Shown: one piece after another, positions 22,967-57,840 of the stretch | How the letters are laid out: every line of letters begins with the position of its first letter | Position numbering within the stretch: the first letter of the stretch is position 1 | DNA from: Fibrobacteria bacterium | GTDB lineage: Bacteria > Fibrobacterota > Fibrobacteria > UBA11236 | Assembly: GCA_041746255.1 (NCBI GenBank) | Contig: JBGTHM010000030.1 | Span: 13,177-77,176, forward strand | DNA length: 64,000 bases | Direction of reading: 5' to 3' | Made by a program: the position numbers and the translations under genes | The notes under the pieces: generated by a model | The model's input: only the letters and a program-made list of their open reading frames with translations | Database searches by the model: none | Told to the model about the DNA's origin: nothing

Positions 22967-23896
22967 TTGGAAGAACGGTTACGTGAGTATTACCGGTTTT
23001 GTCCGTGGGCGGAGGAATATGGGGTCGAGCCCCGTTTTGAAGTCTACCAGAGGGGAGACGAAGCCGCGGATTCGCTACCGGATATTCGGGGTCTGATTTA
23101 TTTGGAAACCGGGGCAAATCCGGAGGAAGTCCGCTTGCTTATCGAGAGCATCCGGAAACGGAATCCCAAGCTGCAAATCGTCCTGATGGTGGACTCCTCC
23201 TTCGATTATTTCGCCCTCGCCCGTTCCTACCGGATTGGTAACCTCGTGCGTAAGGACGCTTTCGATGGAGATCTTCTTCGAGCTCTGTCAATCCGGCTGC
23301 TTACAGGGAATATTTTCGGTTTCGGCCCCTATTTTCCCCATGGGTTCGTGATCGGGCCACTCTACCGCACCTATAGGGGAAAAGTCGTTTTGGAGGAGGT
23401 TTTACAGGAAACTTTCCAGTTCTTTCAGCCCTATGTCAATCCGGACGAGAAGGGCACTTTCAAGATGTTTCTACATGAGCTCTTGACCAACACTTTTGCC
23501 TATGCTCTGGAAGGGATTACCCCTGAAGATCGGGACACTAAGCTGTTGCCGCCTTCCCCCGTCTTGGAGGTGCCCGATCGCCGCGCTATCAAGGTCAGTC
23601 TGGCGGTGGATGAGGAAAAAATCGGGTTTTCCATTCAAGATTCCACCGGAAATTTAAGTATGCTGCGCGTTCTGGATAAATTGCGCCGGCAATCTTGCAT
23701 AGGCGACGAAAAGCTGCCACCGGGGGTTTGGGACGAAAGTGGCCGTGGCATGTCACTGGTCTACCGATATAGCCGTTTTATCGTCAATATCCTGAGGGGA
23801 GTGAGGACTGAAACCATTTTCCTGCAATATCGCAAACAGGAACTGAACCGTTTTGAAAGCGTCATTATCACCGAAGTGACACCAGAATACTTGTAA
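22967..23896 (+). CDS. Degenerate receiver-like domain plus HATPase_c (anti-sigma factor kinase-like) domain protein
   Basis: C-terminal HELLTNTFAYA (N-box), FSIQDSTG (G1) and DESGRGMSLV (G2); N-terminal IRKRNPKLQIVLM receiver-like segment. The start may be 22910. Confidence 0.7.
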   Translation: MEERLREYYRFCPWAEEYGVEPRFEVYQRGDEAADSLPDIRGLIYLETGANPEEVRLLIESIRKRNPKLQIVLMVDSSFDYFALARSYRIGNLVRKDAFDGDLLRALSIRLLTGNIFGFGPYFPHGFVIGPLYRTYRGKVVLEEVLQETFQFFQPYVNPDEKGTFKMFLHELLTNTFAYALEGITPEDRDTKLLPPSPVLEVPDRRAIKVSLAVDEEKIGFSIQDSTGNLSMLRVLDKLRRQSCIGDEKLPPGVWDESGRGMSLVYRYSRFIVNILRGVRTETIFLQYRKQELNRFESVIITEVTPEYL

Positions 23897-24133
23897 ATCG
23901 CCTTATCCAAGGTTCCCACGACCTTGAAAACAGGGCGTTCCCTGACTTTTCCACCATGAATTATTGCTGTTGTTAACGCGCTATCAACATTTGTTGATAA
24001 GTGTCTTTTTTTGGCAGGAGAAAAAATACAATTGAAATAAATAGTTAGATTTTCGAGCCTTTCGAACTCTTTGGCAATTCATTCGGAATCGCTGAGAGAG
24101 GTTCGCTGGTTGAATTAACAAAGGAGAGCATGG

Positions 24134-25342
24134 GTGATTAAATCCATAATGATGTACGCGCAGAAACCCTTGGCGGGCGCCATGGGAATGTTGCTAATCT
24201 CGGTTTTGACGGTTCAAGCGCAAACCGATTTTCTAACTCCGGGTTTCGGGCAGGCCTCGCCTTCGCTGAATGCAGGTCCGCAAGCGCCCCGTACGGAGCT
24301 GTACGAAGGCGTGGTCAAAAGTAATGTGGCGGCCGACAATACGGTTACCGATTACACTCGACTCCCTCACCTCCTTGGGGGCAGGCAATACATCGCCGGT
24401 TTTGGCGACCTCGATCTGGTGAACGCCGCCTTCGCCTTTGGTGATTCCCACATGAATTGGTTCGGTTTGGCGCGCAGCAGCGCGGATGAGGATGAATTGC
24501 GCGCCGGTGTCGCCTTCGGAGACGCCTTCGGGGCCGGTCTCATTTTGGCGTTAAACCGGGAGCATATCGAAGGGGGCGCTCCGGCTACCATAACCCATGA
24601 AGGGCAGGGTTTCGGATTGTTCGGCAGCTTCAACTTGGGTGGAAGTTCGGTTTACGGTGAAGCGGCTCTTTACACGGGGTTCGCTAATCTGTCCGACAAC
24701 GTGCATAATTCCATCAATCCCGAAACCGGTGACCCTACCAACTTCTCGAAATTTCATTTTGTGGCTGGATGGAATATGCAGGCTCAAGCGCAAGGGGACC
24801 ATGCCATGAACGCCGAGCTTTCCTTCGGTTTGAGCAGCGGTGAAGTTCCGGGACCTCCCGCTTTTGAACCAAGCCGGACCGACATCGCACTCTGGTTTCA
24901 GCACGGCTATCTCATGCTCCAACGGGACGGATTTTCCGTTTTCGCAGGAAGCAATAATGGATTCGTTTACGCCGCTGCCGAACAATTGACCGCCGGCGGC
25001 CCCGATCTGAGCGGCATGGCGTTCGCTATATCCCCCAACATGGCTTTCCAGAAAACCCTGCCCAAGGGATTTGAAGTCCAAGCCGGCATTTCCGCTACCC
25101 TGGCGTATCTCTCGGGTTTGGCGGGCACAAACCTAGACCAAGACGAGACCCTCCTCATTACGGGCGATACCCCCTTTCAACGGGCCACCGGCGCCGACAT
25201 GTCGGTGGGCTTGCGTTGGCAACATGAGAATTTCGCCTTCGAAGGAAGCGTGCAGGAAACCCTGCTTTCCAACGGCCCCCAATTCATCGGCGGTGGCGCT
25301 CCCGGTCTCTTCGGTCAAATCGGAATGACGGTCGGTTTTTGA
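24134..25342 (+). CDS. Putative outer membrane beta-barrel protein
   Basis: Signal peptide (…TVQA), alternating Gly/aromatic beta-strands, C-terminal Phe (GQIGMTVGF) and AAGGAG SD. Confidence 0.75.
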   Translation: MIKSIMMYAQKPLAGAMGMLLISVLTVQAQTDFLTPGFGQASPSLNAGPQAPRTELYEGVVKSNVAADNTVTDYTRLPHLLGGRQYIAGFGDLDLVNAAFAFGDSHMNWFGLARSSADEDELRAGVAFGDAFGAGLILALNREHIEGGAPATITHEGQGFGLFGSFNLGGSSVYGEAALYTGFANLSDNVHNSINPETGDPTNFSKFHFVAGWNMQAQAQGDHAMNAELSFGLSSGEVPGPPAFEPSRTDIALWFQHGYLMLQRDGFSVFAGSNNGFVYAAAEQLTAGGPDLSGMAFAISPNMAFQKTLPKGFEVQAGISATLAYLSGLAGTNLDQDETLLITGDTPFQRATGADMSVGLRWQHENFAFEGSVQETLLSNGPQFIGGGAPGLFGQIGMTVGF

Positions 25343-25862: not shown

Positions 25863-26237
25863 TTACGGCTTGGGCACCACACGTATCTTAACTTTCCGGG
25901 ATGTCAGGGACGAACGATTGTCGGAGGCCCAAACCAGGGTGGAGTCGATCGAGACTCCGTATACGCGCAAACCGTTGGGCGTGGCGATTTGCTCGGCATC
26001 GCTATGGACTTTGATATCGGTATAGTTATTGAGGGTGGTAATTTGGCCTCGTTGATTGGCCGTGACTTTGGTGAAAACCAGAGGGGCGGTGCTATCTCCG
26101 ACCGCCACTTCCAAATCTCCCCCTTCATAATGCAACCCGGGTGCATGCCCGGGATCGGTGGCGCATCCCATGAATAAACCGGCGACGGAAAGAGAAAAAA
26201 AGCATAGTAGTATGTGGAATGAAACTGGGCTTGGCAT
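25863..26237 (-). CDS. Putative lipoprotein with an Ig-like domain
   Basis: From ATG 26237, a hydrophobic stretch ends in a lipobox-like LFMG-C, followed by the beta-rich LEVAVGDST...KVKIRVVP. Confidence 0.55.
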   Translation of the reverse strand: MPSPVSFHILLCFFSLSVAGLFMGCATDPGHAPGLHYEGGDLEVAVGDSTAPLVFTKVTANQRGQITTLNNYTDIKVHSDAEQIATPNGLRVYGVSIDSTLVWASDNRSSLTSRKVKIRVVPKP

Positions 26238-26337
26238 AAAAAGATTCGCTGTATTTTCGGGTGATAATGCAACTCCAATATAAAAATCCCAGAGCAGGGT
26301 CTTTGCATCGCTACTTAGAAAAGAGAATAATGCACGC

Positions 26338-27222
26338 ATGATGCTGCCCTTGCCGGTACTTATCCTTCCCCTTGTGGCGGCCTTGCTCTATGCCTTAGCC
26401 ATAACGCTTCTCAAGCGGGCTGTGGGCTTTACCGGTGATTTATGGGGAATGATTCTGGTAATCAATGGAATCGTAGTCCTAACCTACTTCCCTCTGTTTT
26501 TCCTGGATGGCTCTCCCATACCCTGGCATTTGACCTACCAACCCGCCCTGGTTGGGCTGTTTTTTTTACTAGGTCAAGTGTTCGCCTTCAAGGCGGTCGT
26601 CCAAGGCGACCTGAGTGTCGCGACTCCGGCCCTGGGGTCGAAAATTTTGATAGTCGCGGTGTTGTCCGTCTTCTTGTTGGAAGACTCGGTTGCCTGGACT
26701 TGGTGGTTGGCGGCTATTCTGGCCATGGTCGCATTCATCTTGCTAGGGATCGGACAGCCGGGTAAACGCAGAAATACGGCGGTTACGCTGCTGCTTTCCA
26801 TCCTGGCCGCGTTGCAATTCGCAATGGTCGATATCCTGGTGCAGAAATGGGCGCCGCATTGGGGCGTCCCCCGGTTTCTTTTCTTTTTCTCGGTGGCCGG
26901 GGCGGTTTACGCGCTGGCGCTATTGCCATGCGTATCCCGCTCCCGATTGCGCTATGCCGCTCGAGATTGGAAATGGCTGCTTTGGGGTTCGCTTTTCTTC
27001 GCTTTACAGGGCCTGGCTTTGGGGTGGGTAGTGGGCTATTATGGGATGGCTACGGTGGTGAACATTGTGTATAGTTCGCGGGGAATTTGGAATATTTTGC
27101 TGGTGCTGGCGATTGGCGCCCAACTTGGAAATCCGGAATTCGCAGGTGGAAAAAAAATCCTGGCGTTTCGTGTGGTGGGCGCCTTGCTGATTTCAGCGGC
27201 CATCGCCCTGGTTTCTATTTGA
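26338..27222 (+). CDS. EamA/DMT-family transporter
   Basis: About 10 TM segments in two halves; GDLSVATP motif. Confidence 0.85.
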   Translation: MMLPLPVLILPLVAALLYALAITLLKRAVGFTGDLWGMILVINGIVVLTYFPLFFLDGSPIPWHLTYQPALVGLFFLLGQVFAFKAVVQGDLSVATPALGSKILIVAVLSVFLLEDSVAWTWWLAAILAMVAFILLGIGQPGKRRNTAVTLLLSILAALQFAMVDILVQKWAPHWGVPRFLFFFSVAGAVYALALLPCVSRSRLRYAARDWKWLLWGSLFFALQGLALGWVVGYYGMATVVNIVYSSRGIWNILLVLAIGAQLGNPEFAGGKKILAFRVVGALLISAAIALVSI

Positions 27223-27336
27223 TTTTGTATTTAAAGTACGCGGTAGCCAGGGTCTCCGACGCAGTTGAGCGAGGCTTGCTATCGGTTAACAGCCTTAAAA
27301 CGGCAACATCTTTTCACACCCGGTATCGGAGGATTC

Positions 27337-28080
27337 ATGAAATCATTATTGGTCGCGGCGTTGCTGGCACTGGGAGCCACTGCCGCTCCTTCAGATTTTC
27401 AGGGAGTCATCGACATGGACATCGCCTTGTCGGCGGGCAAAGGGCAATTGCAATTGAAAGTGGGAGAGCCCGCCACCCGTATCGACATGAGCCTGGAAAT
27501 CAAGCCCTTACCCCAACCCCTTCGCTTCGCCTTGCTCCTGAAAAATGACAATATGAAAACCCTTTATATGATAAGCGATCATACCCGCTCCTACAGTGAA
27601 ATCGATATCAGCGACAAGGTTGCGGGTAATGAAGAAAAGGGCGGGCCCTACGTTATCAAAGTCGTAGGAAACGAGAAAAGATTGGGCTATAATACCACCG
27701 TGGTGGAAATGACGCGACCCGGCGAGCAGGTCAAACTTTGGGTAAGCAAGGATATCGGCATCTATTCCATCTTCAAAAGGTTGCAGGCCGCCAATCCCCA
27801 GCTGGGAGGCCAAGCTGAAATCCTGTCCGCGTTGGAAAAAGCCGGCCATGCGGGTTTCCCGATGAAATCAGTGATTACCCAAGACGGAGAAACCGTCACG
27901 CTGGAAGTGAAGAAAGTGGAAAAAAAGAAAATCCCTGTATCCGAAGTCTCCCTTCCCGCCGGTTATACCCAGGCAGCCATTTCCCCGGGCGCGTCAGGAG
28001 CCGGCATGCCGAAAGTCTCGCCTGAGCAACTTGAAGCCATGCAGAAAATGCTGGAGGATGTGCTCAAGGGTCAACAATAA
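27337..28080 (+). CDS. Secreted DUF4412-like protein
   Basis: GGAGG SD, signal peptide MKSLLVAALLALGATAA, then GNEKRLGYNT...LWVSKDI...GFPMK...LPAGY pattern. Confidence 0.75.
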   Translation: MKSLLVAALLALGATAAPSDFQGVIDMDIALSAGKGQLQLKVGEPATRIDMSLEIKPLPQPLRFALLLKNDNMKTLYMISDHTRSYSEIDISDKVAGNEEKGGPYVIKVVGNEKRLGYNTTVVEMTRPGEQVKLWVSKDIGIYSIFKRLQAANPQLGGQAEILSALEKAGHAGFPMKSVITQDGETVTLEVKKVEKKKIPVSEVSLPAGYTQAAISPGASGAGMPKVSPEQLEAMQKMLEDVLKGQQ

Positions 28081-28081
28081 C

Positions 28082-28768
28082 ATGTTTTTTTTCGTGGGGC
28101 GGCAGCCAGACGACGAAAGTTGCGGCATCACCTGCCTCCAGTCCATTTACCGTTTTTACGGGCATGAAATATCCTGGGAACGTCTAGCAGGCGAGATCGA
28201 GCATTGGCGAACCGGGGGCACGGTGAATGTGAACCTGGCGCGTCATGCCTTGCGCGAAGGTTTCTCCGCCGAAATCTGCACCTATAACATCCGCATATTC
28301 GATCCCACTTGGAGAGGCTTATCTTCCGGGGAGCTTTCGCACAAACTAAAGCTCCGTCAGGCGAAAATGCGGAGTAAGAAACAGAAAATGGTCATCGGTT
28401 TCTACCTCGACTTTCTGGAACGGGGGGGAGTCATCCGGTTCGACGACCTTAACGAAGGTCTTTTCGATACCCTGTTCGAGGAAAACCGACCTATCATCGT
28501 AGGACTTTCGGCGACCTATCTCTATCAAAGCATGCGGGAAACGCCCAATAACGTGGACAACGACATCATTGGCCAGCCCGTGGGTCATTTCGTGGTGGTT
28601 TCGGGTTGGGACCGTGCCAGGCGCGAAGTCATCATCCACGATCCTCTGCGCAAGAATCCCATCGCGGAGTCCGGCAATTACAACCTCCCCTTCACCAAGT
28701 TCAGCAACGCCGTTATGTTGGGCATCATCACTTACGACGAAAACCTCCTTATCATTTCAAAAAAATGA
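28082..28768 (+). CDS. Papain-like C39-family peptidase
   Basis: QPDDESCGITCL (Gln/Cys) and GHFVVVSGWD...IHDP (His/Asp). ATG 28082 lies 1 nt after the upstream stop. Confidence 0.85.
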   Translation: MFFFVGRQPDDESCGITCLQSIYRFYGHEISWERLAGEIEHWRTGGTVNVNLARHALREGFSAEICTYNIRIFDPTWRGLSSGELSHKLKLRQAKMRSKKQKMVIGFYLDFLERGGVIRFDDLNEGLFDTLFEENRPIIVGLSATYLYQSMRETPNNVDNDIIGQPVGHFVVVSGWDRARREVIIHDPLRKNPIAESGNYNLPFTKFSNAVMLGIITYDENLLIISKK

Positions 28769-30291
28769 CAAAACAATATTATGTGGTCGAGAACCCCCGG
28801 TACTGGCGGAAGCGCGTGCCGCAAGTCGAATTTTTAAGCGTCAGCGAATACCTGTTTTCCAAAGAATACCAGGACGTCAAACAGCTGCGCATCATCAATC
28901 TGGCCCGCAATTACGGCTATTTGGGCGCGGGCTATTACGTGTCGCTGGTGGCCGAAGCCCGCGGACACCAGGTGATTCCCAATTTATCCACGGTTCAAGC
29001 CTTAAGCCGGAAAGAGTTCTATCTCATCGAAACCGACGATTTGGACGCGCAAATCCAGAAGAGTCTGGCGAATATCACCGACGATAAGTTCGAGTTGAGC
29101 GTCTATTTCGGCCGCAACGTGAATAAAAAATACGAGAAGCTTTCGCGCCTTTTCTTCAACTTGCTGCCATGCCCCTTGTTTCGGGTGCATTTCGTCAAAG
29201 AGAAGCGGTGGGCACTGCATTCCATCAAGCCGGTGGCATTGGATAAAATCCCTGCCTATCACGACGAAATTTTCATGGAGGCTTTGCTCGATTTCGGGGT
29301 ACGAAGATGGAGCCTACGCAAGCGCGCGAACACCTTGCGCTACGATTTGGCCATTCTCTTCAATCCCCACGAAAGGTATTCTCCTTCCAGTGAAGCGACT
29401 CTCCAGAAGTTCATCAAGGCGGGAAAGACCGCCGGTTTGGCAGTGGAAATTATCGAGAAACGGGATTATGCCCATCTGCCCGAATTCGACGGATTGTTCA
29501 TACGCGAAACCACCGCAATCGATCATCACACCTTCCGTTTCGCGCGCAAGGCCGAAAAAGAGAACATGGTGGTCATTGACGACCCGCGCTCCATTCTTTA
29601 CTGCACCAATAAGATTTTTCTGAACGAGGTGTTCAAGCGCGCCGGTGTCCCGCGGCCGCGCACCCTGGTGCTCAGCGAGGAAAACCTGGAGTCGTCGCTG
29701 CAGGAATTCTCCTTTCCCATCATCCTTAAAATTCCCGACGGATCGTTCTCGCGCGGTGTGGTCAAGGCACGGGACGCGGCGGAACTCAAGGCGCATAGCA
29801 AAGAATTTTTCCGTCATTCCGATTACATCATCGCCCAGGAGTTCATGCCCACCGAATTCGATTGGCGCATTGGAATCTTCAACGGAAAGCCCCTTTTCGC
29901 ATGCCAATACTTCATGTCCCGCGACCACTGGCAGATTATCAACCACAAGGTCGAGGGCAGCGGCCGACTGGGCAACCATAAAACCCACCCTATCGAGTTG
30001 ATGGAAGAAAACATTATCGCAACGGCCCTGAAATCATGCAAGTTGATAGGCGACGGCCTTTACGGCGTCGACTTGAAGGTGGTCGAGGGCAAGCCCTATG
30101 TTGTGGAGGTGAACGACAATCCCAATATCGATACCGGAGTTGAGGATGAGCTGCTTAAGGATAAGCTTTACCAGATAATCATGGAGGAATTCGCGGTGCG
30201 AATCGATAAGCGGCGAATGCGCAAGGATGGTTCGGCTGGTCAGGCTGCGCAGGATTTACCGAAGCTTATGAATTCCAAGGGGTACGCTTGA
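28765..30291 (+). CDS. RimK-family ATP-grasp ligase with an N-terminal RLAN domain
   Basis: IINLARNYGYLGAGYYVSLVAEARGH (RLAN), FIRETT, CTNK, KIPDGSFSRGV, QEFMPTEFDWR, YGVDLK and EVNDNP. ATGA overlap with the peptidase. Confidence 0.92.
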   Translation: MTKQYYVVENPRYWRKRVPQVEFLSVSEYLFSKEYQDVKQLRIINLARNYGYLGAGYYVSLVAEARGHQVIPNLSTVQALSRKEFYLIETDDLDAQIQKSLANITDDKFELSVYFGRNVNKKYEKLSRLFFNLLPCPLFRVHFVKEKRWALHSIKPVALDKIPAYHDEIFMEALLDFGVRRWSLRKRANTLRYDLAILFNPHERYSPSSEATLQKFIKAGKTAGLAVEIIEKRDYAHLPEFDGLFIRETTAIDHHTFRFARKAEKENMVVIDDPRSILYCTNKIFLNEVFKRAGVPRPRTLVLSEENLESSLQEFSFPIILKIPDGSFSRGVVKARDAAELKAHSKEFFRHSDYIIAQEFMPTEFDWRIGIFNGKPLFACQYFMSRDHWQIINHKVEGSGRLGNHKTHPIELMEENIIATALKSCKLIGDGLYGVDLKVVEGKPYVVEVNDNPNIDTGVEDELLKDKLYQIIMEEFAVRIDKRRMRKDGSAGQAAQDLPKLMNSKGYA

Positions 30292-31511
30292 ACTATAAGC
30301 CATTTGAAGTATTCGGTATTGAAATCGAATATGCCGTCGTGGGGCGCGATAACCTGCAGGTAAAGCCCGTGGTGGACAAGCTAATCACCACCTTGTGCGG
30401 AAGCCCCAACCTGTTTCCCACCTTGGGAAATGCGGAAGCCGATAACGAACTGGCAGCCCATGTGGTCGAAATGAAATGCAAGGTCCCCACGGCGGATTGG
30501 GCCGCCCAGGCGCGCGACTTCCAACAAATGGTCTCGCTTCTCAATAAAACCTTGGACGGTTTGGACTCCCGTCTCATGCCCGGAGGTTCGCATCCCTTTA
30601 TGGACCCGGCCCGGGAATCGAAATTGTGGGAGCATGACGGCCGCGAAATCTATTCGACCTATGACGGCATTTTCGGATGCCGCGGTCATGGCTGGTTCAA
30701 TCTTCAGAGCGTGCATTTGAACCTGCCCTTCTCCGATGACGCCTCGTTTAACCTTCTGCATAATGCGGTCAGTCTATTGCTCCCCCTTATGCCGGCTTTG
30801 GCGGCGGCTTCACCCGTATTGGAGGGCAAGCGCCATGCCTGGAAGGACGCCCGGCTTTTCCATTACTTGCAAAACCAAAGACGATTTCCTTCTGTTATCG
30901 GTCCGGTGATTCCCGAGCCATTGCGAAGCGAAGCGGAATACCGAGCGAAGATTTTGGCGCCTATGTATAGGGAAATCGCTTCTTCCGATCCGGAGGGGTT
31001 GCTCCAGGATGAATGGCTCAATTCCCGCGCGGCCATCGCCCGTTTCGATCGGGGCGCCATCGAGGTGCGCTGTATCGATACGCAAGAATGCCCGCTCGCC
31101 GACCTGGCCCTCTGTTTTTTCTTTTCCGGATTGTTGCGCGCGCTGTGCGAATCGAGGGCGGATTTGTACGGAGCGCATGCGGAGGTGCCGGGTGGAGTTT
31201 CGCGGGCACTATTCGAGGACTGCGCGCGCGTCGGAATGGATGTGCTTCTGCCGAAGGTTTATCCGCAGGAAGTTTTCGGCCTTAGCCAGAGGGAACGCAG
31301 CGCGCGGGATTTTTTCCAGGATCTACTGTCGACCGGCTTCGCATATGCCACCGTAGCGGAGAATGCCTTATTCCGACCTGTGATTGAGCATATCTTGACG
31401 CGGGGAAGCTTAAGCGATCGAATCATACGGTTGGCCGGCCCGAGGGAGGACTGGCTTTCGGCCTATAGGGAGGTGTGTGAATGTCTCGCTACAGGGCGTT
31501 TGCTGGAGTAG
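30288..31511 (+). CDS. Glutamate-cysteine ligase family 2 (carboxylate-amine ligase)
   Basis: FGIEIEY, NELAAHVVEMK, GSHPF, QSVHLNL, ASP and IEVRCID motifs. TTGA overlap with the RimK gene. Confidence 0.9.
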   Translation: MNYKPFEVFGIEIEYAVVGRDNLQVKPVVDKLITTLCGSPNLFPTLGNAEADNELAAHVVEMKCKVPTADWAAQARDFQQMVSLLNKTLDGLDSRLMPGGSHPFMDPARESKLWEHDGREIYSTYDGIFGCRGHGWFNLQSVHLNLPFSDDASFNLLHNAVSLLLPLMPALAAASPVLEGKRHAWKDARLFHYLQNQRRFPSVIGPVIPEPLRSEAEYRAKILAPMYREIASSDPEGLLQDEWLNSRAAIARFDRGAIEVRCIDTQECPLADLALCFFFSGLLRALCESRADLYGAHAEVPGGVSRALFEDCARVGMDVLLPKVYPQEVFGLSQRERSARDFFQDLLSTGFAYATVAENALFRPVIEHILTRGSLSDRIIRLAGPREDWLSAYREVCECLATGRLLE

Positions 31512-31658
31512 ACTTCCGAGAGACGGCAGGCGCTCTCTCCTAATTCGCTTTGTTTGGAAAGGGGTGAGCGGGCTTGCCATCGCCTGGTTCATACCCACTG
31601 TTGTATTATATTTGCCATTCATTCATGAATTCGCGAAGCCCCTTTTTGAAAGTCTGGA

Positions 31659-34271
31659 ATGCAGGATAAACTTTGGCAGCGCACCGCGCGTGCCTATGTC
31701 GAATTCAGCTACCGGCATCCCTGGCCGCCAATACTGATTTTTCTGGCGTTGGGCCTGATAACCCTTTATTTGGGTACCGGATTACGCATCGAAACCGATT
31801 TACGGGTTTTGCTCCCCAAAAAAACCCCTTCCGTGCAGGCCTTGGAGGAATCGGAGCGCCGCATGGGCAGTACCGATTTGTTCACCCTCGCGATTCAGGC
31901 GCCCTCCGCCGAAGCCGTGGCGGCCTTCCAAAGAGACGCGGCCGCGGCGCTCTCCGAATGGGAAGGCGTTTCCTGGGTGCAATTCGATCAAGAAAGGGGC
32001 TTTTTCGAAGAAAAGGCCTTGCTGTATATGCCTCTGGGCGAATTGGAAGATTTGCGGGGCCGTATTTCGGACTTGGTGGGCAAAACCTTCGTGGAGCGAA
32101 ACCCCTTTCTCCTCGATTTGGGTGACGACGATGAGGATTCAGAATCCCAGGGATTGCAAGGCTGGCCCGATACTCTGGCCTTACGACGCCAAGGCCTACC
32201 TCCGGATATCGTGGCCGCTTTGCTGGCGAAAATCAATACCCACGATAATCGCAGCCCTACCGAAGAGACCTCGGCCCCGCGCGCTGATGCTGAAGATCCC
32301 GTCCGTCCCGATTCCTTAGCTTCGCGGCTTATGGGTTGGGACGGTAGCCGCGGCGCTTGGGTAGGCGTGGTATTGGCTCAACTTGACCAGCCTTCCACCA
32401 ATGCCCAATTTGCTCAAGGTATTTTCGAGAAAGGCGAGGCGCTTATTCGCGAGTTAGATCCCGGGCGTTATCATCCTGAGATGATTGCGCGGGTTGCGGG
32501 CGCCTATCGCAATTTCAGCGAAATCAAGCAAGTCAATACCGACATGGCGCTGGCGGGAACGATTTCCTTTTTGGGTGTATCGATTCTGCTTTTTCTGTTC
32601 CTGCGACGATTCATCAATTTCGTTCTGGTCATGAGTCCGATTTTCATCGCCAGTTTTTGGACGCTGGGCGTTACCTACCTGATTTACGGACGGCTCACCT
32701 TATTGACGGCCTTTATCCTGTCGCTGGTTTTGGGATTGGGGATAGAGTACTCCATTCACCTTTTCGGCCGTTGGGCGGAAGAGCGCCGTAAAGGCCAACA
32801 TTCGCTGGAAGCCATGGTGGTCTCCCTGACCTATACCGGTAGGGCGTTGCTTTCGGGAGCGGCCACCAATATTTTCGCCATGCTAAGCCTGCAAGCGGGT
32901 AATTTTACCGGCTTCAAGGAATACGGTATCGTGGTCAGCTTGGGCATCGCATTCTGCCTTATCGCCTCTTGGGTCGTGATACCTCCGCTTTTCTTTTTAT
33001 TTACCCGTTGGGGGACGGGTCTGGAAAGGGCGTTTCAGAATACGGATAACCGCGTGACGCGGAGCCTTGTGGGGCTGTGTCGATTTTTGCTTCCGGGAGA
33101 AAGCCTGGTTTCGGGAGGTAAGCTGCTGCCCCGTTTGCGGATAAGCGGCAAGGCTTTGAACCGGGTAGGTTACGCCGGCTTGGCGTTCACCTGCCTATTG
33201 CTCTTCACTCCGCCCGCCCAATTCGAAAACGACTTCCGGAATCTCCGGGGCGAGAGCACGGGGGCCGGCATCAGTTATGGACGCGCCGTAGGTAGCGGAC
33301 GCAATACCTCCCCCTCCATTATTCTGGGCCATAGCGTGGAGCAGATGCGCCAGGTGCACGATTCCCTGGCGGCGCGTTTCGGCAGTCCGCCCGACAGCAT
33401 GCTGCAAAGCTTCGTCACCATTTCCTCCTTTGTGCCCACCGAAGAGGAACAAAGCGAGAAAATCGAGGTGCTGGAAGAAATCAACGAATTGCTCGATGCG
33501 CGGGCCCTGGCGAATGTGGACGGGGATACCCGCGAAAAACTCGATCTGTTGCGGAGCTATGCCAGTCCCAGGCCTTTCGACTTCTCCGACCTTCCGGAAT
33601 GGGCCCGGCGCTTCCTGACCGAAGCCGACGGCAGCCATGGAAAAATCGGATATATGTACGGACGGCTGCAGGAAAGCGACGCGATTGAGAGCGGTAAATT
33701 CCAAGACCGCTTCGGTACTCTCCACTCCGAGTCGGGCCCGGTGCAGGTGGCGTCCAGCGGTTTCATCTACGCGGACGTCGTGCGCATGGTCAAACGCGAC
33801 GGGGTCTATCTCGCCCTGGCCACCGTGTTTTTCCTCATGATCATCACCTGGGTAGACATGCGGAATTGGCGCGGTATGGCTTCGGTCCTGGGTTTCATCC
33901 TATTGTCCGGCTTTTGGACCTATGCGTTGATGGGCTTATTCGGTCTTAAGTTGGGCATGTTCAATCTGGTCATCATCCCGACCATACTCTCGGTTTCCGT
34001 CGATTCCGTGATCCATATGTACCATCGGCGCATGGAATTGGGCGCGGGGAAAATAGGCGAACTCATCCATACCACGGGGTCGGCGGTTCTCACGGGAACC
34101 CTGACCAACGCCTTCGGATTCGCGGGCTTATGCTTCGTCAACCATAAGGGTTTGCAAACACTCGGGTATATGGCGACGCTGGGCATCGCCTCGGGGTTGG
34201 TGATCTTATTCACGATTCTACCCTGGTTTCTGGAACGAATTTGCCCCAAGGAGCCCGTCCGGGAATATTGA
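31659..34271 (+). CDS. MMPL/RND-family transporter
   Basis: Two TM bundles separated by large extracytoplasmic loops; LGLGIEYSIH and SVSVDSVIH motifs. Confidence 0.88.
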   Translation: MQDKLWQRTARAYVEFSYRHPWPPILIFLALGLITLYLGTGLRIETDLRVLLPKKTPSVQALEESERRMGSTDLFTLAIQAPSAEAVAAFQRDAAAALSEWEGVSWVQFDQERGFFEEKALLYMPLGELEDLRGRISDLVGKTFVERNPFLLDLGDDDEDSESQGLQGWPDTLALRRQGLPPDIVAALLAKINTHDNRSPTEETSAPRADAEDPVRPDSLASRLMGWDGSRGAWVGVVLAQLDQPSTNAQFAQGIFEKGEALIRELDPGRYHPEMIARVAGAYRNFSEIKQVNTDMALAGTISFLGVSILLFLFLRRFINFVLVMSPIFIASFWTLGVTYLIYGRLTLLTAFILSLVLGLGIEYSIHLFGRWAEERRKGQHSLEAMVVSLTYTGRALLSGAATNIFAMLSLQAGNFTGFKEYGIVVSLGIAFCLIASWVVIPPLFFLFTRWGTGLERAFQNTDNRVTRSLVGLCRFLLPGESLVSGGKLLPRLRISGKALNRVGYAGLAFTCLLLFTPPAQFENDFRNLRGESTGAGISYGRAVGSGRNTSPSIILGHSVEQMRQVHDSLAARFGSPPDSMLQSFVTISSFVPTEEEQSEKIEVLEEINELLDARALANVDGDTREKLDLLRSYASPRPFDFSDLPEWARRFLTEADGSHGKIGYMYGRLQESDAIESGKFQDRFGTLHSESGPVQVASSGFIYADVVRMVKRDGVYLALATVFFLMIITWVDMRNWRGMASVLGFILLSGFWTYALMGLFGLKLGMFNLVIIPTILSVSVDSVIHMYHRRMELGAGKIGELIHTTGSAVLTGTLTNAFGFAGLCFVNHKGLQTLGYMATLGIASGLVILFTILPWFLERICPKEPVREY

Positions 34272-47282: not shown

Positions 47283-49796
47283 ATGAGAAACCTCCGCAAA
47301 GATTTCGCCAAGCTTCTCTGCGTGTCGCTATTAGCGCCCGTCGTAGTGCATGCCTTGAACGGGTTCGAAGTCGAGGGGGGGCAGGTGGGGCAAAGAGTGC
47401 TTACCCTGGCCATAGACGATTCGGTGCGGCTCCCTGACCTTTCCAAACTCCAGGTAAGCGGTCATCAAATACAAGCGGCCGTCTTTATTGAAGAATACGA
47501 TTTGCCCTTCGTCGTCTCCCCGAATCTGGTGGACGCCGTCGCGGACCCCACGCTTCGGGTTATTCGACAGGTGCGGCCGGGCCTGTATGAATTCGAAAGT
47601 TCCGCCGGGTTTCTTCCCCGTCAGGGCATGATTCTCAGCGATACCGCATTGGGGGGAGTGTTGGTGCGGGTCAACCGATTCGAACCGACGCCAGGCAAGG
47701 GAGGATTCCGGCGCCGCTGGATGCTCGAAACCGTTCCGGCGGCATTGACCGACGCCATTTTTTCCTGTGATCTTTTTTTCAGCACCGATATTAATCTGAA
47801 CTTGGCATTTCGCGAACGCAAAGGCTCGCGAGAGGTGGAGGATATCGGTACGGGCGCCGGGCTTCCCGAAAACGGTCTCCTGGAATTCTCGCTCTTGGAT
47901 GGGAAGGTACTGGCCAGTCCCCGTTTAACGGGCCGCTTACGCATCAATGATGGGCGGGTTGAGGTCTTCACGTCCTCCGTTGAGGGAGAGTTCGAATATA
48001 TCGGGAAAATGGAAAGCTCCCTGCAGGGTGTGGGAAATTATCGCCTTGAAGAAGCGCTTCCCGAAGGTATCGCTATCAACATCCCTCTCGAGAAGGGACT
48101 TTTCTTGCGAATTTCGCATCGAGCTCAATTCATCGTCGAAGCCTCTTCGATTACCGGTACTCTAACCGGGCGGGCGGGACTGGACCTGAAAAGCCGCGTT
48201 CGCAGTTCTCTCGATTTTGCCAAGGGCGAATGGAACCCGACCTCGCATTACACTCTTTTGCCCAATTCCAAAACCAGACAACACGTGGAAGGTGAGGGAA
48301 GCATGAAGCTTACACTGCAGTCCAACCTTGACGTACGTCTTAACGGTCGCCAGGGTCCGGTGCACATTTTCGAGCCATACATGCGGTTATCTTCCGAGAG
48401 CCTGTCATCCGCCCCCGCATCCCCCTTCGACCCCGCCGGTCGCGGTACCAATCGTTTTGTCAATGTGGGATTACACTCCCACCTGTTTCTAGGAGTCAAT
48501 CTGGATGGGGAGGCGGTCAGACGAAATTTCCAGGTATTTTCCCGGGAGCTGCCTTTCCTGGCTCCCCCGGCTCGAGGAGCACTTTCCCTGAGGGAGGTTG
48601 ACTCGAGCCAGGCGGTGCTGGTTTACCATGGTCCTCCCGGGGTGGAAGCTTTTCAAGTCCAGGTTTGGGAAGAAGGGCAATGGTGGAATTGGTCGGAATC
48701 ACCCGGTCCCCGTATCCGGCTTTCCGGCCTGGCTCCGGGAAAAACCTATCGTGTGCGTGTCGTAGGCATCAACGCCATGGGTTCAGGTGAACCCTTTCCC
48801 CAGGATGGCCTGAGTTTCACCACTGCCCAAAGGAACCAACCTCCTTTTGTTCCCGAAGCTTATTTTCCGTATCCCGGCGCTTTAGCCGGCCAATTGAATA
48901 TCGAACTTTCTTGGAAGGGGGGAGACCCGGACGGCGATGAAGTCTTTTACGATGTTTATCTGGATACGTTGTTACCACCTAAACAGCAAGTGAGTCAGGG
49001 TATAAAGGATTCCAGCCATATCCAGGCAGGCTTAAAGCCTGGCACACGCTATTACTGGAAAATCGTGGCCAATGACGGAAATGTCGCAACCGAAAGTCCG
49101 ACCTGGAGTTTTACCACCTTGGAGGCTCCCCAGGTAGCCAAGCCCCGGGTTCACCCGGAGCCCTCAGAGATGCTATTCCTGCCGGGTGGATCGTTTCTGA
49201 GAAAGGATGGAAGGCGCGTCGAGGTTCGCAAATTCTTCCTTCAGAAATATGAAGTGAATCAAGCGGATTTCCGCAAGGTGATGGGCATCAATCCTTCCCA
49301 CCACCATAACGATGCCTACCCCGTAGAAAAGGTTTTGTGGGAAGAGGCTGCGACCTATTGTAGGGAAATCGGCGGCCGGCTTCCCACGGAAGCGGAGTGG
49401 GAATATGCGGCCCGCGCGGGGTTTTCCGGGGGCGATTTCTGGGGGAATCCAAATCCGGATCAATACGCCTGGTACTTCACCAATTCCAGTCAACGTACGC
49501 ATAGGGTGGGCAAAAAAGATGCCAATCCCTGGGGTTTGCATGATGTTCTGGGCAATGTCTCGGAATGGGTGCAAGATTGGTATGGAGAGTATTCTCCCGA
49601 TGATCTGGATAACCCTACCGGGCCCGAAACGGGGACGACCAAGGTGGTTAGGGGCGCGAGCTGGTACAGTGAGCCGCAAAGCCTCAATCCCACCAAACGT
49701 TTCTCCAATCGTCCGGGCTTCCGGAATTATAAAGTGGGTTTCCGTTGCGCCGCCGACGTGGGATCCGACGACCGGATAAGTTCAACGGACGATTGA
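47283..49796 (+). CDS. Secreted protein with fibronectin type III domains and a C-terminal FGE-sulfatase (SUMF1-like) domain
   Basis: GLAPGKTYRVRV and GLKPGTRYYWKI (FN3); RLPTEAEWEYAAR, NPWGLHDVLGNVSEW, RGASW and GFRC. Confidence 0.88.
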   Translation: MRNLRKDFAKLLCVSLLAPVVVHALNGFEVEGGQVGQRVLTLAIDDSVRLPDLSKLQVSGHQIQAAVFIEEYDLPFVVSPNLVDAVADPTLRVIRQVRPGLYEFESSAGFLPRQGMILSDTALGGVLVRVNRFEPTPGKGGFRRRWMLETVPAALTDAIFSCDLFFSTDINLNLAFRERKGSREVEDIGTGAGLPENGLLEFSLLDGKVLASPRLTGRLRINDGRVEVFTSSVEGEFEYIGKMESSLQGVGNYRLEEALPEGIAINIPLEKGLFLRISHRAQFIVEASSITGTLTGRAGLDLKSRVRSSLDFAKGEWNPTSHYTLLPNSKTRQHVEGEGSMKLTLQSNLDVRLNGRQGPVHIFEPYMRLSSESLSSAPASPFDPAGRGTNRFVNVGLHSHLFLGVNLDGEAVRRNFQVFSRELPFLAPPARGALSLREVDSSQAVLVYHGPPGVEAFQVQVWEEGQWWNWSESPGPRIRLSGLAPGKTYRVRVVGINAMGSGEPFPQDGLSFTTAQRNQPPFVPEAYFPYPGALAGQLNIELSWKGGDPDGDEVFYDVYLDTLLPPKQQVSQGIKDSSHIQAGLKPGTRYYWKIVANDGNVATESPTWSFTTLEAPQVAKPRVHPEPSEMLFLPGGSFLRKDGRRVEVRKFFLQKYEVNQADFRKVMGINPSHHHNDAYPVEKVLWEEAATYCREIGGRLPTEAEWEYAARAGFSGGDFWGNPNPDQYAWYFTNSSQRTHRVGKKDANPWGLHDVLGNVSEWVQDWYGEYSPDDLDNPTGPETGTTKVVRGASWYSEPQSLNPTKRFSNRPGFRNYKVGFRCAADVGSDDRISSTDD

Positions 49797-55349: not shown

Positions 55350-56528
55350 ATGGCCATACTTTGTGATTTCCATTCCCACCGACCGCCGTACCGGATCAGT
55401 AACTCCGAGGCGGCGTCTTGGTTGGCGAGCGCGCATGGCCGGGCGGAGAAGACGCGCTCTACCGATCCGTACTTTTCGGAGACCGCGTTTACGGAGCGCA
55501 TGCATAGGCAATTGCTGCGTTTCGGACCGGGGTCGGAAAGCGTGGCCTGCCGAGGCCATCACCTGGAAGACTATGGACATCACGACTGGGAGCGCATGGC
55601 CATCCACCGCCTGCACGAATCCCCTAACGGCGAGGGCATCGGCCCGCGTATGGAAAAATTTTCGGAAATAAGCGCGGCCGTGCTGGAAGAGATTTATCCT
55701 GAGGACGCCAAAGCGCCCGACGATATCATCCATGTTACCTGCACCGGATATGTGGCGCCCAGCGCTGCGCAAAACCTGGTAGTCAAACGCGGATGGAGCG
55801 AAACCACCCGGGTTTTGCATGCCTACCATATGGGCTGCTACGCCGCGTTGCCCGCGGTGCGCATAGCCTCCGGGTTGTTGACGGCTACTCAAACGGGCAT
55901 CGCTTCGAGCCGCGTCGACATCGTCCATAACGAAGTGTGTACCCTGCACCTCGACCCCGGTCGGCATGAAGCCGAGCAATTGGTGGTGCAAAGCCTTTTC
56001 GGAGACGGCCATATCCGCTATTCCGTCCTGGCCGATGGTGAAGATGCCGCCGGCGTGCGCGATGCACACGGGCTGGAAGTTTTGGCCGTGCAGGAGACTT
56101 TGGTGCCGGACTCGGCTAACGACATGACTTGGATTCCGGGATCCCACGGTATGCGTATGAGCCTTTCGCGCGAGGTGCCCGAACATATCGCCGGCAAGCT
56201 GCGCGAATTCGTACAAAAACTTTACGCGCTCGGCGGCTACCGCCCAGCCGAAGTATGGTCAAAGCATCCCCGAACCCTTTTTGCCGTGCATCCCGGCGGG
56301 CCGCGCATCATCGATAGCGTCGCCGCCCTGCTCGAACTCAAGCCGGACCAGGTGGAAGCCAGCCGCCGCGTACTGAAAAACTTTGGAAACATGTCTTCGG
56401 CCACCGCACCGCATATATGGATGGACATGCTGCACGACGATTCGGTAGCGGCCGGCACTCGCATAATCAGCCTCGCCTTCGGCCCCGGCCTTACCATACA
56501 CGGCTGTCTGCTCAGGAAAATAAGATGA
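55350..56528 (+). CDS. Type III polyketide synthase (chalcone/stilbene synthase-like)
   Basis: Cys-His-Asn triad (HMGCYA, AVHPGGPRI, FGNMSS), plus HVTCTG, LFGDG and AFGPGLT. Confidence 0.93.
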   Translation: MAILCDFHSHRPPYRISNSEAASWLASAHGRAEKTRSTDPYFSETAFTERMHRQLLRFGPGSESVACRGHHLEDYGHHDWERMAIHRLHESPNGEGIGPRMEKFSEISAAVLEEIYPEDAKAPDDIIHVTCTGYVAPSAAQNLVVKRGWSETTRVLHAYHMGCYAALPAVRIASGLLTATQTGIASSRVDIVHNEVCTLHLDPGRHEAEQLVVQSLFGDGHIRYSVLADGEDAAGVRDAHGLEVLAVQETLVPDSANDMTWIPGSHGMRMSLSREVPEHIAGKLREFVQKLYALGGYRPAEVWSKHPRTLFAVHPGGPRIIDSVAALLELKPDQVEASRRVLKNFGNMSSATAPHIWMDMLHDDSVAAGTRIISLAFGPGLTIHGCLLRKIR

Positions 56529-57094
56529 TGGGGCTGGCGGCGGTGGGGCTCTTTCTGGGCCATTCCCTGCTCATGCTCCTCGACGAATTCCACTTCCATT
56601 ACCGGCGCGGTTTGCCCCGCTGGGAAAGATGGGGTCACCCGCTTGATACCCTGTCGGTGCTCGCTTGTTATCTCTTCGCCCTGTCCATGCCGTTTTCCAT
56701 AGGCGCGGCTTGGGGATATGCCGCCCTGGCAGTAGGCTCCTGTCTGTTGGTAACCAAAGATGAAGGGGTGCATGCGGAACGGTGCGGCAAAGGAGAGCAA
56801 TGGCTACATTCCGTCTTGTTCGTATTGCACCCGCTGCTGTTGGCCTTCGCGGGTTGGTATTGGTTGGTTACTCAAGGCCCGGCGGTGGAATCGGCGTTTG
56901 CCCGGGTAGGTCTGCCCGGGGTGTTTGAATTGGGTCTTTTCCGGATGTTTCTTCCCGTGCATGCGGGTTTGACCGCTCTTTTTCTTATTTACCAAATAAT
57001 ATGGTGGAATTGGATATGGAAAGAAAAACCGTCGAGCTTACCGAAAAGGCGTATGCCGTTGCCCAGCCGGAGAACGGAAGCCGCCGTGCGGTAG
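56525..57094 (+). CDS. His/Glu-rich integral membrane protein, unknown function
   Basis: ATGA overlap with the PKS; about 5 TMs; DEFHFH...ERWGH and DEGVH...EQWLH motifs. Confidence 0.75.
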   Translation: MMGLAAVGLFLGHSLLMLLDEFHFHYRRGLPRWERWGHPLDTLSVLACYLFALSMPFSIGAAWGYAALAVGSCLLVTKDEGVHAERCGKGEQWLHSVLFVLHPLLLAFAGWYWLVTQGPAVESAFARVGLPGVFELGLFRMFLPVHAGLTALFLIYQIIWWNWIWKEKPSSLPKRRMPLPSRRTEAAVR

Positions 57095-57840
57095 ATTTCC
57101 CCGGCGGGGTGAACAACGCCTTCTACGAGGATTTGGGCCGCCGTTGGTACGAAGCCAAAGACGATCCCGTGGCCCTGTTGCGGGCCGAGGGCCGGCTCAA
57201 GCACGCCTGGGTGAGCCGCGAAGTCGATCGCCTCCTTCCCGGAGGAAACCGGCGGGTCTTGGACATCGGTTGCGGCGCAGGCTTCGCGCTCAAGCATTTG
57301 GCCAAAGAGGGCCATAGTGGCTACGGCGTGGACCGTTCCCCCTCAAGCCTGCGCATGGCGCGCGAGTTCGCCGCTCCCTTGCCATTGCGCTTGCAGGTGG
57401 CCGATGCCTATCAAGTGCCCTATGAAGACGCTTCTTTCGACGTGGTGCTGGCGCTGGATTTTCTAGAGCATGTAGAGCAACCCGAAAAAGTGGTGGCCGA
57501 AGCCGCGCGGCTTTTGCGGCCCGGAGGCTTGTTCTTCTTCCATACCTTCAACCGCAACCCCTTGGCGTGGCTTATCATCATCAAAGGCGTGGAATGGTTC
57601 GTCAAGAATACACCCGCGCATATGCATGTGCTTCCGTTATTCATCAAGCCATCGGAATTGCGCGGTTACTGCGAGCGCGAGGGCATGCGCATCGAAGCCA
57701 TGACGGGGTTACGTCCGGACTTCATGCGCAAGGCTTTTTGGAAAATGTTGGCGACCCGCGAAGTGCCGGACGATTTCGAATTCGTGTTGACGTCCTCGCT
57801 GACGCTCTCCTATCTGGGAGCCGCGAGGCGCGAAGCTTAG
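57016..57840 (+). CDS. UbiG-like class I SAM-dependent O-methyltransferase
   Basis: VLDIGCGAG, FDVV...DFLEHV, LRPGGLFFFHTFNRN and FIKPSEL motifs. Start is uncertain. Confidence 0.88.
   Translation: MERKTVELTEKAYAVAQPENGSRRAVDFPGGVNNAFYEDLGRRWYEAKDDPVALLRAEGRLKHAWVSREVDRLLPGGNRRVLDIGCGAGFALKHLAKEGHSGYGVDRSPSSLRMAREFAAPLPLRLQVADAYQVPYEDASFDVVLALDFLEHVEQPEKVVAEAARLLRPGGLFFFHTFNRNPLAWLIIIKGVEWFVKNTPAHMHVLPLFIKPSELRGYCEREGMRIEAMTGLRPDFMRKAFWKMLATREVPDDFEFVLTSSLTLSYLGAARREA

Follow-up and report, generated by a model that had tools for sequence, protein, structure and literature searches.

The question raised by this locus is which of its genes belong together and what they could make. At 27337-31511 of a 64,000-nucleotide stretch of Fibrobacteria bacterium DNA (contig JBGTHM010000030.1; the whole stretch is called the window in the following) four plus-strand genes, whose ends were determined from the sequence, lie in close succession. 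They encode a DUF4412 protein, a C39-like cysteine peptidase, an RLAN-RimK ATP-grasp ligase, and a GCS2-type carboxylate-amine ligase. Judged from the neighbourhoods of related ligases, just the three enzymes form the conserved unit.

Relatives of the ATP-grasp ligase were collected with an alignment of 17 sequences, taking one genome per species. At least 589 relatives were obtained and the best 80 loci were kept; their open reading frames (ORFs) were searched with the window proteins, and the neighbouring genes were assigned with Pfam. The peptidase, ATP-grasp, and GCS2 genes were found in this same order, with short or overlapping junctions, at 6 of the 80 loci. By this survey the operon of two ligases and a peptidase, which the original prediction had proposed for the window, recurs as a trio elsewhere. 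The order is kept across Fibrobacteria and four further metagenome-assembled genomes (MAGs), of which one is from Planctomycetaceae, two carry the label delta proteobacterium, and one is unclassified (Table 1). Such conservation would be expected of genes that act together to make or modify a small product with amide bonds. A GCS2 orthologue lies directly after the ATP-grasp gene at eight of the 80 loci. Three of the six full cassettes (L034, L043, and L058) continue directly after GCS2 with a gene for an N-formylglutamate amidohydrolase (FGase, PF05013).

The remaining 72 loci stem mostly from Pseudomonadota. Here a specific GNAT protein adjoins the ligase in 65 cases, and 29 of these 65 GNATs are fused to DUF3335; both were found with profiles of their own, built from Pfam-verified examples. 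Fusion of DUF3335 to GNAT is described as frequent in PMC10318531. Neither GNAT nor DUF3335 was detected at seven of the 72 loci, three of which are cut near the ligase. The window was searched as well for GNAT, DUF3335, and FGase genes of the types linked at the other loci, and none was found. At one locus, in Methylomonas methanica (L049:5741-6961, minus strand), a DUF2817 protein (E 2.6e-86) is encoded between the GNAT-DUF3335 and the RLAN-RimK genes, which makes it a candidate for an additional hydrolase in systems of the GNAT type.

In a maximum-likelihood tree with 76 ATP-grasp rows the eight trio-type rows and one orphan, L042, were placed on one side of a branch with a support of 98 in the SH-like approximate likelihood ratio test (SH-aLRT). 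The orphan (L042:7001-8437, from a Verrucomicrobiota MAG) has a ligase of the trio-type group, yet neither peptidase nor GCS2 is present within its 10.6-kb locus, and the ligase gene is followed by an unnamed ORF of 465 aa. This ORF and the unnamed one that follows the ligase gene in L004 are related neither to one another nor to GCS2.

The peptidases of the two types of loci were compared at the level of families. The window peptidase has no match to the Pfam DUF3335 model (PF11814) at E ≤0.01. An hhalign comparison of its family with the DUF3335 domains gave a probability of 94.5% (E 8e-8), and an invariant glutamine, cysteine, histidine, and aspartate are common to both. Homology between DUF3335 and the stand-alone peptidases is supported by this profile comparison.

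The pairing of RLAN-RimK with GNAT or GNAT-DUF3335 was reportedly predicted by Iyer, Abhiman, Burroughs, and Aravind in Mol Biosyst in 2009. The window cassette agrees with it in the orthologous ligase with its RLAN domain (42-50% identity), in the homologous papain-fold peptidase with invariant Q, C, H, and D, and in a second amide-forming enzyme encoded beside the ligase. It differs in having a GCS2 ligase instead of the GNAT and a peptidase encoded by its own gene, and in that the trio-type ligases lie on their own side of the branch. With RLAN, ATP-grasp, a second ligase, and a papain-like peptidase all present, the window system appears to work like the RLAN-RimK amidoligase and peptidase systems of this comparative-genomics prediction. 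On these comparisons the stable core of the family is the ligase, a papain-like enzyme, and a second amide-forming enzyme, namely GNAT, or GCS2 in the clade of the window. RLAN-RimK has two alternative partner sets. One is GNAT, to which a DUF3335 peptidase may be added, and the other is GCS2 together with a stand-alone peptidase and, in some cases, FGase. These two sets and the homologous peptidases of both define a minimal unit that can be expressed to find the product.

The three enzymes and their genes

The DUF4412 and peptidase genes of the window are separated by a gap of 1 nt. At the next junction the ATG of the ATP-grasp gene overlaps the peptidase stop codon in an ATGA, and at the last one the TTG start of GCS2 overlaps the ATP-grasp stop codon in a TTGA (Table 1). 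The sequence GGAGG is found 5 nt before the ATG of DUF4412. The physical coupling of the genes had been read in the same way in the original prediction and is confirmed by these gene ends; its domain assignments for all four genes also held, since Pfam matches above the curated cut-offs were obtained. A scan of 26000-32500 for promoter and terminator consensus sites gave sites not above the shuffled expectation and therefore says nothing on co-transcription. Rfam returned no family in the 64-kb window at the gathering threshold and none in 27000-31900 at E ≤1.

The ATP-grasp protein matches the RLAN family (PF14401) with E 8.2e-46 and 155.8 bits against a cut-off of 25, covering positions 2-149 of the 150 in the profile with residues ~27-172. 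Its ATP-grasp module matches the Pfam families RimK (4.1e-7, 30.2 bits against 21) and ATP-grasp_3 (2.1e-9, 38.1 against 23.2). Without exception, the 17 aligned ligase sequences retain K322, E359, D436, E448, and N450, and we take these to be the nucleotide- and metal-binding residues. Among proteins of solved structure, those closest to the ligase in sequence include the RimK and LysX groups. In NCBIfam the protein remains under the cut-offs of rimK_fam (TIGR00768, 73.9 bits against 143.4) and LysX (71.3 against 275.6) and under those for glutathione synthase (NF003573, 26 bits against 272; PRK12458, 60.9 against 408). The nearest relatives of the ligase are from Fibrobacteria MAGs (66-69% identity), and several homologues of the peptidase are named as Fibrobacteria, too, so that a member of Fibrobacterota is the probable source of the window. 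The RLAN-RimK family as a whole is very large and extends over many phyla, with at least 7999 homologues (7999 of 8000 scored candidates matched). A literature search, outside of which the domain-defining survey of 2009 lay, returned no paper naming a product of RLAN-RimK ligases.

For the GCS2 protein the Pfam match (PF04107, 1.5e-24, 87.3 bits against 21) covers profile positions 35-278 of 291. The scores for the NCBIfam models are far under the cut-offs, both for the YbdK family (TIGR02050, 43.1 bits against 176.4) and for the gamma-Glu-Cys ligases (NF010043, 28.2 against 409; NF010040, 36.2 against 425). The original prediction had stated that the two ligases are not a canonical gshA/gshB pair, and with all equivalog and subfamily scores, that of rimK likewise, far under the cut-offs, we agree. 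The TTG at 30288 is the first start codon past the upstream in-frame stop. It is followed by the N-terminal motif GIEIEY, which is present in all four ortholog rows covering this end of the protein. The GCS2 alignment (A6) has 7 rows, two of which were entered truncated, and contains 72 invariant positions. No meaningful sequence match was found in the Protein Data Bank (PDB).

The peptidase passes the Pfam cut-offs for Peptidase_C39_2 (9e-9, 36.5 bits against 24) and Peptidase_C39 (3.2e-8, 33.9 against 22), both as partial matches; a match to Guanylate_cyc_2 is under the cut-off. None of the 47 aligned homologues deviates at Q8, C14, H169, or D187, so that the intact Q/C/H/D residues noticed originally extend to the family. 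From the C39 enzymes we assume that these four residues are the catalytic ones. A signal-peptide-like N-terminus is absent in all three enzymes (mean Kyte-Doolittle values of 0.94-1.59), in agreement with the earlier statement that the peptidase has no signal peptide.

By sequence the best match of the peptidase to a solved structure reached only E 0.17. The predicted model (pLDDT 93.1) is closest in fold to the pseudomurein endoisopeptidase PeiR, followed by the C39 domains of PCAT1 and ComA (E 1e-5 to 3e-4). The model also resembles a Bacillus C39-like protein, CtaG, which forms amides, and Alr0975, which is phytochelatin-synthase-like and is matched in its glutathione acyl-enzyme entries as well. 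As these neighbours comprise hydrolases of unusual amide bonds as well as transacylases, the peptidase may have either role. A complex prediction of the peptidase (alignment A4) with the full RLAN-ATP-grasp protein (A1) gave a score of 0.00, which counts neither for nor against binding.

Table 1. Genes of the locus, flanking genes, and related loci
Feature	Locus or position	Strand	Remarks
DUF4412 protein, 247 aa	27337..28080	+	ATG 27337, TAA 28078-28080; PF14371
C39-like papain-fold cysteine peptidase, 228 aa, stand-alone	28082..28768	+	ATG 28082, TGA 28766-28768
RLAN + RimK-type ATP-grasp ligase, 508 aa	28765..30291	+	ATG 28765, TGA 30289-30291
GCS2-type carboxylate-amine ligase, glutamine-synthetase fold, 407 aa	30288..31511	+	TTG start 30288; Pfam GCS2
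EamA-like (DMT) transporter	26338..27222	+	114 nt upstream of the operon; Pfam EamA 7.1e-6, slightly under cut-off; context only
MMPL/HAE3 RND transporter, HpnN/BstA-like	31659..34271	+	147 nt downstream; Pfam MMPL 5.6e-25; context only
Full cassette	L001, L003		Fibrobacteria (L001 MAG, L003 chromosome)
Full cassette + FGase	L034		unclassified MAG
Full cassette + FGase	L043, L058		MAGs labelled delta proteobacterium; L058 broken by frameshifts
Full cassette	L047		Planctomycetaceae MAG
ATP-grasp + GCS2	L002		near-duplicate of L001, locus cut at left end
ATP-grasp + GCS2	L006		Planctomycetales MAG; no peptidase in its 700 nt upstream
FGase genes	L034:9656-10441, L043:9626-10417, L058:9756-10124		right after GCS2 in non-Fibrobacteria cassettes
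Transglutaminase-like cysteine protease gene	L001:3281-4810; L003:4801-6066	-	divergently upstream; orthologous, phmmer E ~1e-103

DUF4412 and the flanks of the cassette

The protein encoded by the first gene matches DUF4412 over the full profile (positions 1-191 of 191; E 2.2e-40, 138.9 bits against 21.6). It is the sole one of the four with a signal-peptide-like N-terminus, in which Lys2 is followed by a hydrophobic stretch of 11 residues with a mean Kyte-Doolittle value of 2.73. The original description as a secreted DUF4412-like protein agrees with this, where secreted stands for a measure of hydrophobicity and inspection. DUF4412 is a broad family. A search yielded 350 representative clusters at E ≤1e-3, and Acidobacteriota and Bacteroidota are among the groups represented in its Atlas clusters. 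A literature search on DUF4412 found no paper.

An AlphaFold2 model of the protein (pLDDT 86.2) was compared with the PDB by Foldseek. LolA, LolA-superfamily proteins, LprG/LprF, and RseB/MucB were matched with E ~2e-6 and a probability of 1.00, although with TM-scores of only 0.3-0.5 and an rmsd of 6-12 angstroms. The predicted open beta-sheet with helices and the signal-peptide-like N-terminus are what the protein has in common with the LolA/LprG/RseB superfamily; by sequence there is no match to a solved structure in the PDB. We therefore describe the fold as predicted to be LolA-superfamily-like. Solved relatives with this fold carry acyl chains or lipids, i.e., hydrophobic ligands, in the periplasm.

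A profile of 81 DUF4412 sequences was run against all ORFs of the 80 loci and found, besides the window, L001 only. This protein is an orthologue with 34% identity over the full length, compared with 68% for the ligase, and its gene lies upstream of the peptidase gene with 111 nt between them. No DUF4412 gene is present at the five other full cassettes, i.e., L003 and the four non-Fibrobacteria loci; L002 is cut before the site where the gene would be expected. Directly upstream of the peptidase, L003 has a transglutaminase-like gene and the four non-Fibrobacteria cassettes have unrelated genes. In L001 the orthologous transglutaminase-like gene diverges from DUF4412 on the other strand. The transglutaminase-like protein matches a lasso-peptide B2 model weakly and has no homologue in the 64-kb window.

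The flanks of the window locus match those of L001 and L002 (WbuC cupin, EamA, RND pump, glycosylase, and GT4), whereas L003 differs on both sides. When the 80 loci were searched, L001 alone had an EamA orthologue upstream of the cassette. Orthologues of the RND transporter are present in L001 and L002 and missing in L003. In NCBIfam the RND transporter of the window matches HpnN (6.1e-54), HAE3 (1.2e-47), and BstA (1.2e-37), each under its cut-off. The next gene after it codes for a methylpurine glycosylase and is on the opposite strand. L001 and L002 have almost identical ligases (end branches of 0.001 and 0.005); the interval between GCS2 and the RND gene differs, as L001 contains there an additional CorA gene, which is encoded on the other strand.

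Since the flanks are shared with L001 and L002 and are different in L003, the adjacency of DUF4412 cannot be told apart from synteny inherited within one sub-lineage. The original prediction had placed DUF4412 at the head of the operon as a possible substrate, carrier, or receptor. For this role we find little support, as the gene is linked at 1 of 80 loci and is missing from five of six full cassettes. A lack of linkage in related genomes had been named originally as a refutation, and it is largely what L003 and the four non-Fibrobacteria cassettes show. By gene order DUF4412 is a lineage-specific neighbour and not a regular member of the cassette, and it is translationally coupled in the genome of the window only. 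Judging from the predicted fold, a part in transport at the envelope or of hydrophobic ligands is more plausible, and its partner may be the HpnN-like RND pump encoded nearby. Such a role with the pump appears at least as plausible as one with the cytoplasmic ligases, both being equally hypothetical. As a local neighbour with a predicted LolA-like fold, DUF4412 does not define the system and need not come first in experiments.

Possible product and competing explanations

The reading that we favour, with a moderate degree of confidence, is that a small peptide of the glutamate type would be made in the cytoplasm in two ATP-dependent steps and would be degraded, edited, or transferred by the cysteine enzyme and, in some genomes, by FGase. 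The two ligases, which are of unrelated folds, would each activate a carboxylate with ATP and ligate amides in succession, the outcome being a small glutamate-containing metabolite resembling a di- or tripeptide. GCS2 would most likely form an amide of the gamma-glutamyl type, and the RimK-type enzyme would extend the product by at least one acidic residue in alpha linkage. The cysteine enzyme may then hydrolyse, edit, or transfer the product via an acyl-enzyme intermediate, and the FGase amidohydrolase would be a further degradative step where it is present. The cassette represents a variant of the much commoner pairing of RLAN-RimK with GNAT, often fused to DUF3335, in which GCS2 replaces the GNAT. 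We arrive at this reading because of the established chemistry of ATP-grasp and glutamine-synthetase-fold enzymes, the cross-phylum cassette, and a published generalisation: according to PMC4431377, operon-linked ATP-grasp, COOH-NH2, and GNAT ligases were observed earlier and often catalyse successive ligations. The fold neighbours PeiR, Alr0975, and CtaG, which act on isopeptide or gamma-glutamyl bonds or form amides, also count in its favour.

Several points weigh against this reading and against leaving DUF4412 out of it. The survey covered the best 80 loci out of at least 589 relatives, so that the frequencies come from a biased sample, and the ligase tree was a quick search from which the short rows L015, L039, L051, L054, and L058 had been dropped. 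Because GCS2 and the ATP-grasp protein score far under every characterised equivalog, the word glutamyl is a family analogy only. A gap of just 1 nt downstream of DUF4412 and a strong GGAGG upstream of it make it very probable that this gene is co-transcribed with the enzymes here, and it may have a local functional tie to the cassette in the genome of the window. DUF4412 still adjoins the cassette in L001 despite the low identity between both proteins. Moreover, the longest contigs with two metagenomic DUF4412 homologues (70% and 40% identity) measure 13090 and 8944 nt, the same as those for close homologues of the ATP-grasp protein and the peptidase; the equal sizes are a circumstantial hint at further co-location of DUF4412 and the cassette in the lineage.

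Instead of making a small molecule, the RLAN-RimK enzyme might glutamylate the C-terminus or a side chain of a protein, with GCS2 priming or capping the tag, the peptidase removing it, and RLAN recognising the target. The Pfam assignment of the ATP-grasp module and its nearest solved relatives are compatible with this, and a dedicated N-terminal RLAN domain together with a paired peptidase suits a scheme of writing and erasing. The module is shared with Escherichia coli RimK, the S6 glutamate ligase, but the window ligase carries an extra RLAN domain of 170 residues and its rimK_fam score is only about half of the cut-off; to our knowledge, rimK loci have no GCS2 and peptidase partners. There is no conserved candidate for a target gene beside the cassette, the flanks being different in every lineage, and the commoner partner of the ligase is a GNAT. 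FGase, by its family name an N-acyl amino acid amidase, points to a small molecule in the three cassettes that contain it. In favour of protein tagging, RimK puts up to fifteen glutamates on S6 according to PMC4431377; on the whole we consider this reading unlikely. A thiol pathway, in which GCS2 makes gamma-Glu-Cys, the ATP-grasp enzyme adds a third residue, and the papain-fold enzyme is phytochelatin-synthase-like, would use the same three folds as a GshA-type ligase, a GshB-type ATP-grasp enzyme, and phytochelatin synthase (Alr0975). The peptidase model matches Alr0975 including the glutathione acyl-enzyme entries with E 2e-4 to 1e-3, and there are weak matches to the GCS2 and glutathione-synthetase models. 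No equivalog cut-off is reached, however, as the scores given above for NF010043, NF003573, and PRK12458 illustrate, PeiR and the C39 domains are better fold matches of the peptidase, and nothing in the sequence points to a cysteine substrate. For these reasons we regard a thiol product as improbable.

C39 domains process the leaders of ribosomal peptides, and ATP-grasp enzymes cyclise some of these peptides. The C39-like enzyme could thus cut a double-glycine leader and the ATP-grasp enzyme cross-link the precursor peptide. The peptidase shares with the C39 domains of PCAT1 and ComA the fold, the positions of Q, C, H, and D, and the two Pfam families. In contrast to them it is a stand-alone, cytoplasmic protein with the catalytic Gln and Cys as early as residues 8 and 14, and it is ~90 residues longer than the isolated C39 domains of ~135-150 residues (ComA and PCAT1). 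The two intergenic gaps contain few ORFs of at least 20 aa, none of them remarkable. No plausible precursor lies in or beside the operon, and no ABC transporter was found, fused or as a neighbour, among the window genes scanned. This argues against a leader peptidase, the ATP-grasp protein being moreover RimK-type with RLAN and usually partnered by a GNAT, and the ribosomal peptide reading was rejected as highly improbable. The transporter genes around the cassette suggest still another possibility, namely a system of four or six parts in which a peptide or lipid-linked peptide is pumped by the RND or EamA protein and the periplasmic DUF4412 protein carries or senses it. The 1-nt gap before the peptidase and the RND gene shortly downstream on the same strand would agree with such an export system, and so would the distribution of the flanking genes, as the window and L001 both have DUF4412, EamA, and the RND gene and L003 lacks all three. 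The LolA-like fold binds hydrophobic ligands in solved relatives, and varied exporters are found near other cassettes (LysE in L058, ABC exporters in L006). These transporters come from unrelated families, however, and DUF4412 is missing from 79 of the 80 loci overall. In L001 the gap before the peptidase is wide and the opposite-strand CorA gene lies between GCS2 and the RND gene. The co-variation amounts to two lineages against one, the same as for plain synteny, and WbuC, methylpurine glycosylase, and GT4 are likewise common to the two. We rate export as decidedly unlikely, and slightly more so the specific form in which the cassette is wired to the envelope in the lineage of the window, a glutamyl peptide on a hydrophobic moiety being exported by the RND pump and received by DUF4412. 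If true, this would be a previously unseen route from non-ribosomal amidoligases to a periplasmic carrier. The system is not RimK proper, GshA/GshB, or a bacteriocin C39 system, because the defining features of each are lacking, and the two-step synthesis of a small peptide remains the reading that we prefer.

Other features of the window

The window is ordinary chromosome. A RimP/IF-2/RbfA/TruB/FAD-synthetase/PNPase block occupies 9-19 kb, and genes for the envelope and for polysaccharides are found in other parts. At 22967-25342 two adjacent plus-strand genes code for proteins of 309 and 402 aa without a Pfam or NCBIfam family, the former of which has an orthologue in L003 (2880-3863, E 2e-109). 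Amid genes of polysaccharide synthesis, an 837-aa protein encoded at 47283-49796 contains fn3 and a C-terminal FGE-sulfatase domain, resembling formylglycine-generating enzymes. A type III polyketide synthase-like gene with chalcone/stilbene synthase domains, a family-less ORF of 225 aa, and a SAM methyltransferase gene follow one another at 55350-57840 and may be a small cluster of the alkylresorcinol or pyrone type. Finally, the segment 62001-64000 has a GC content of 0.435, compared with 0.50-0.60 elsewhere, and contains the start of a histidine-kinase gene beside a LuxR-type response regulator.

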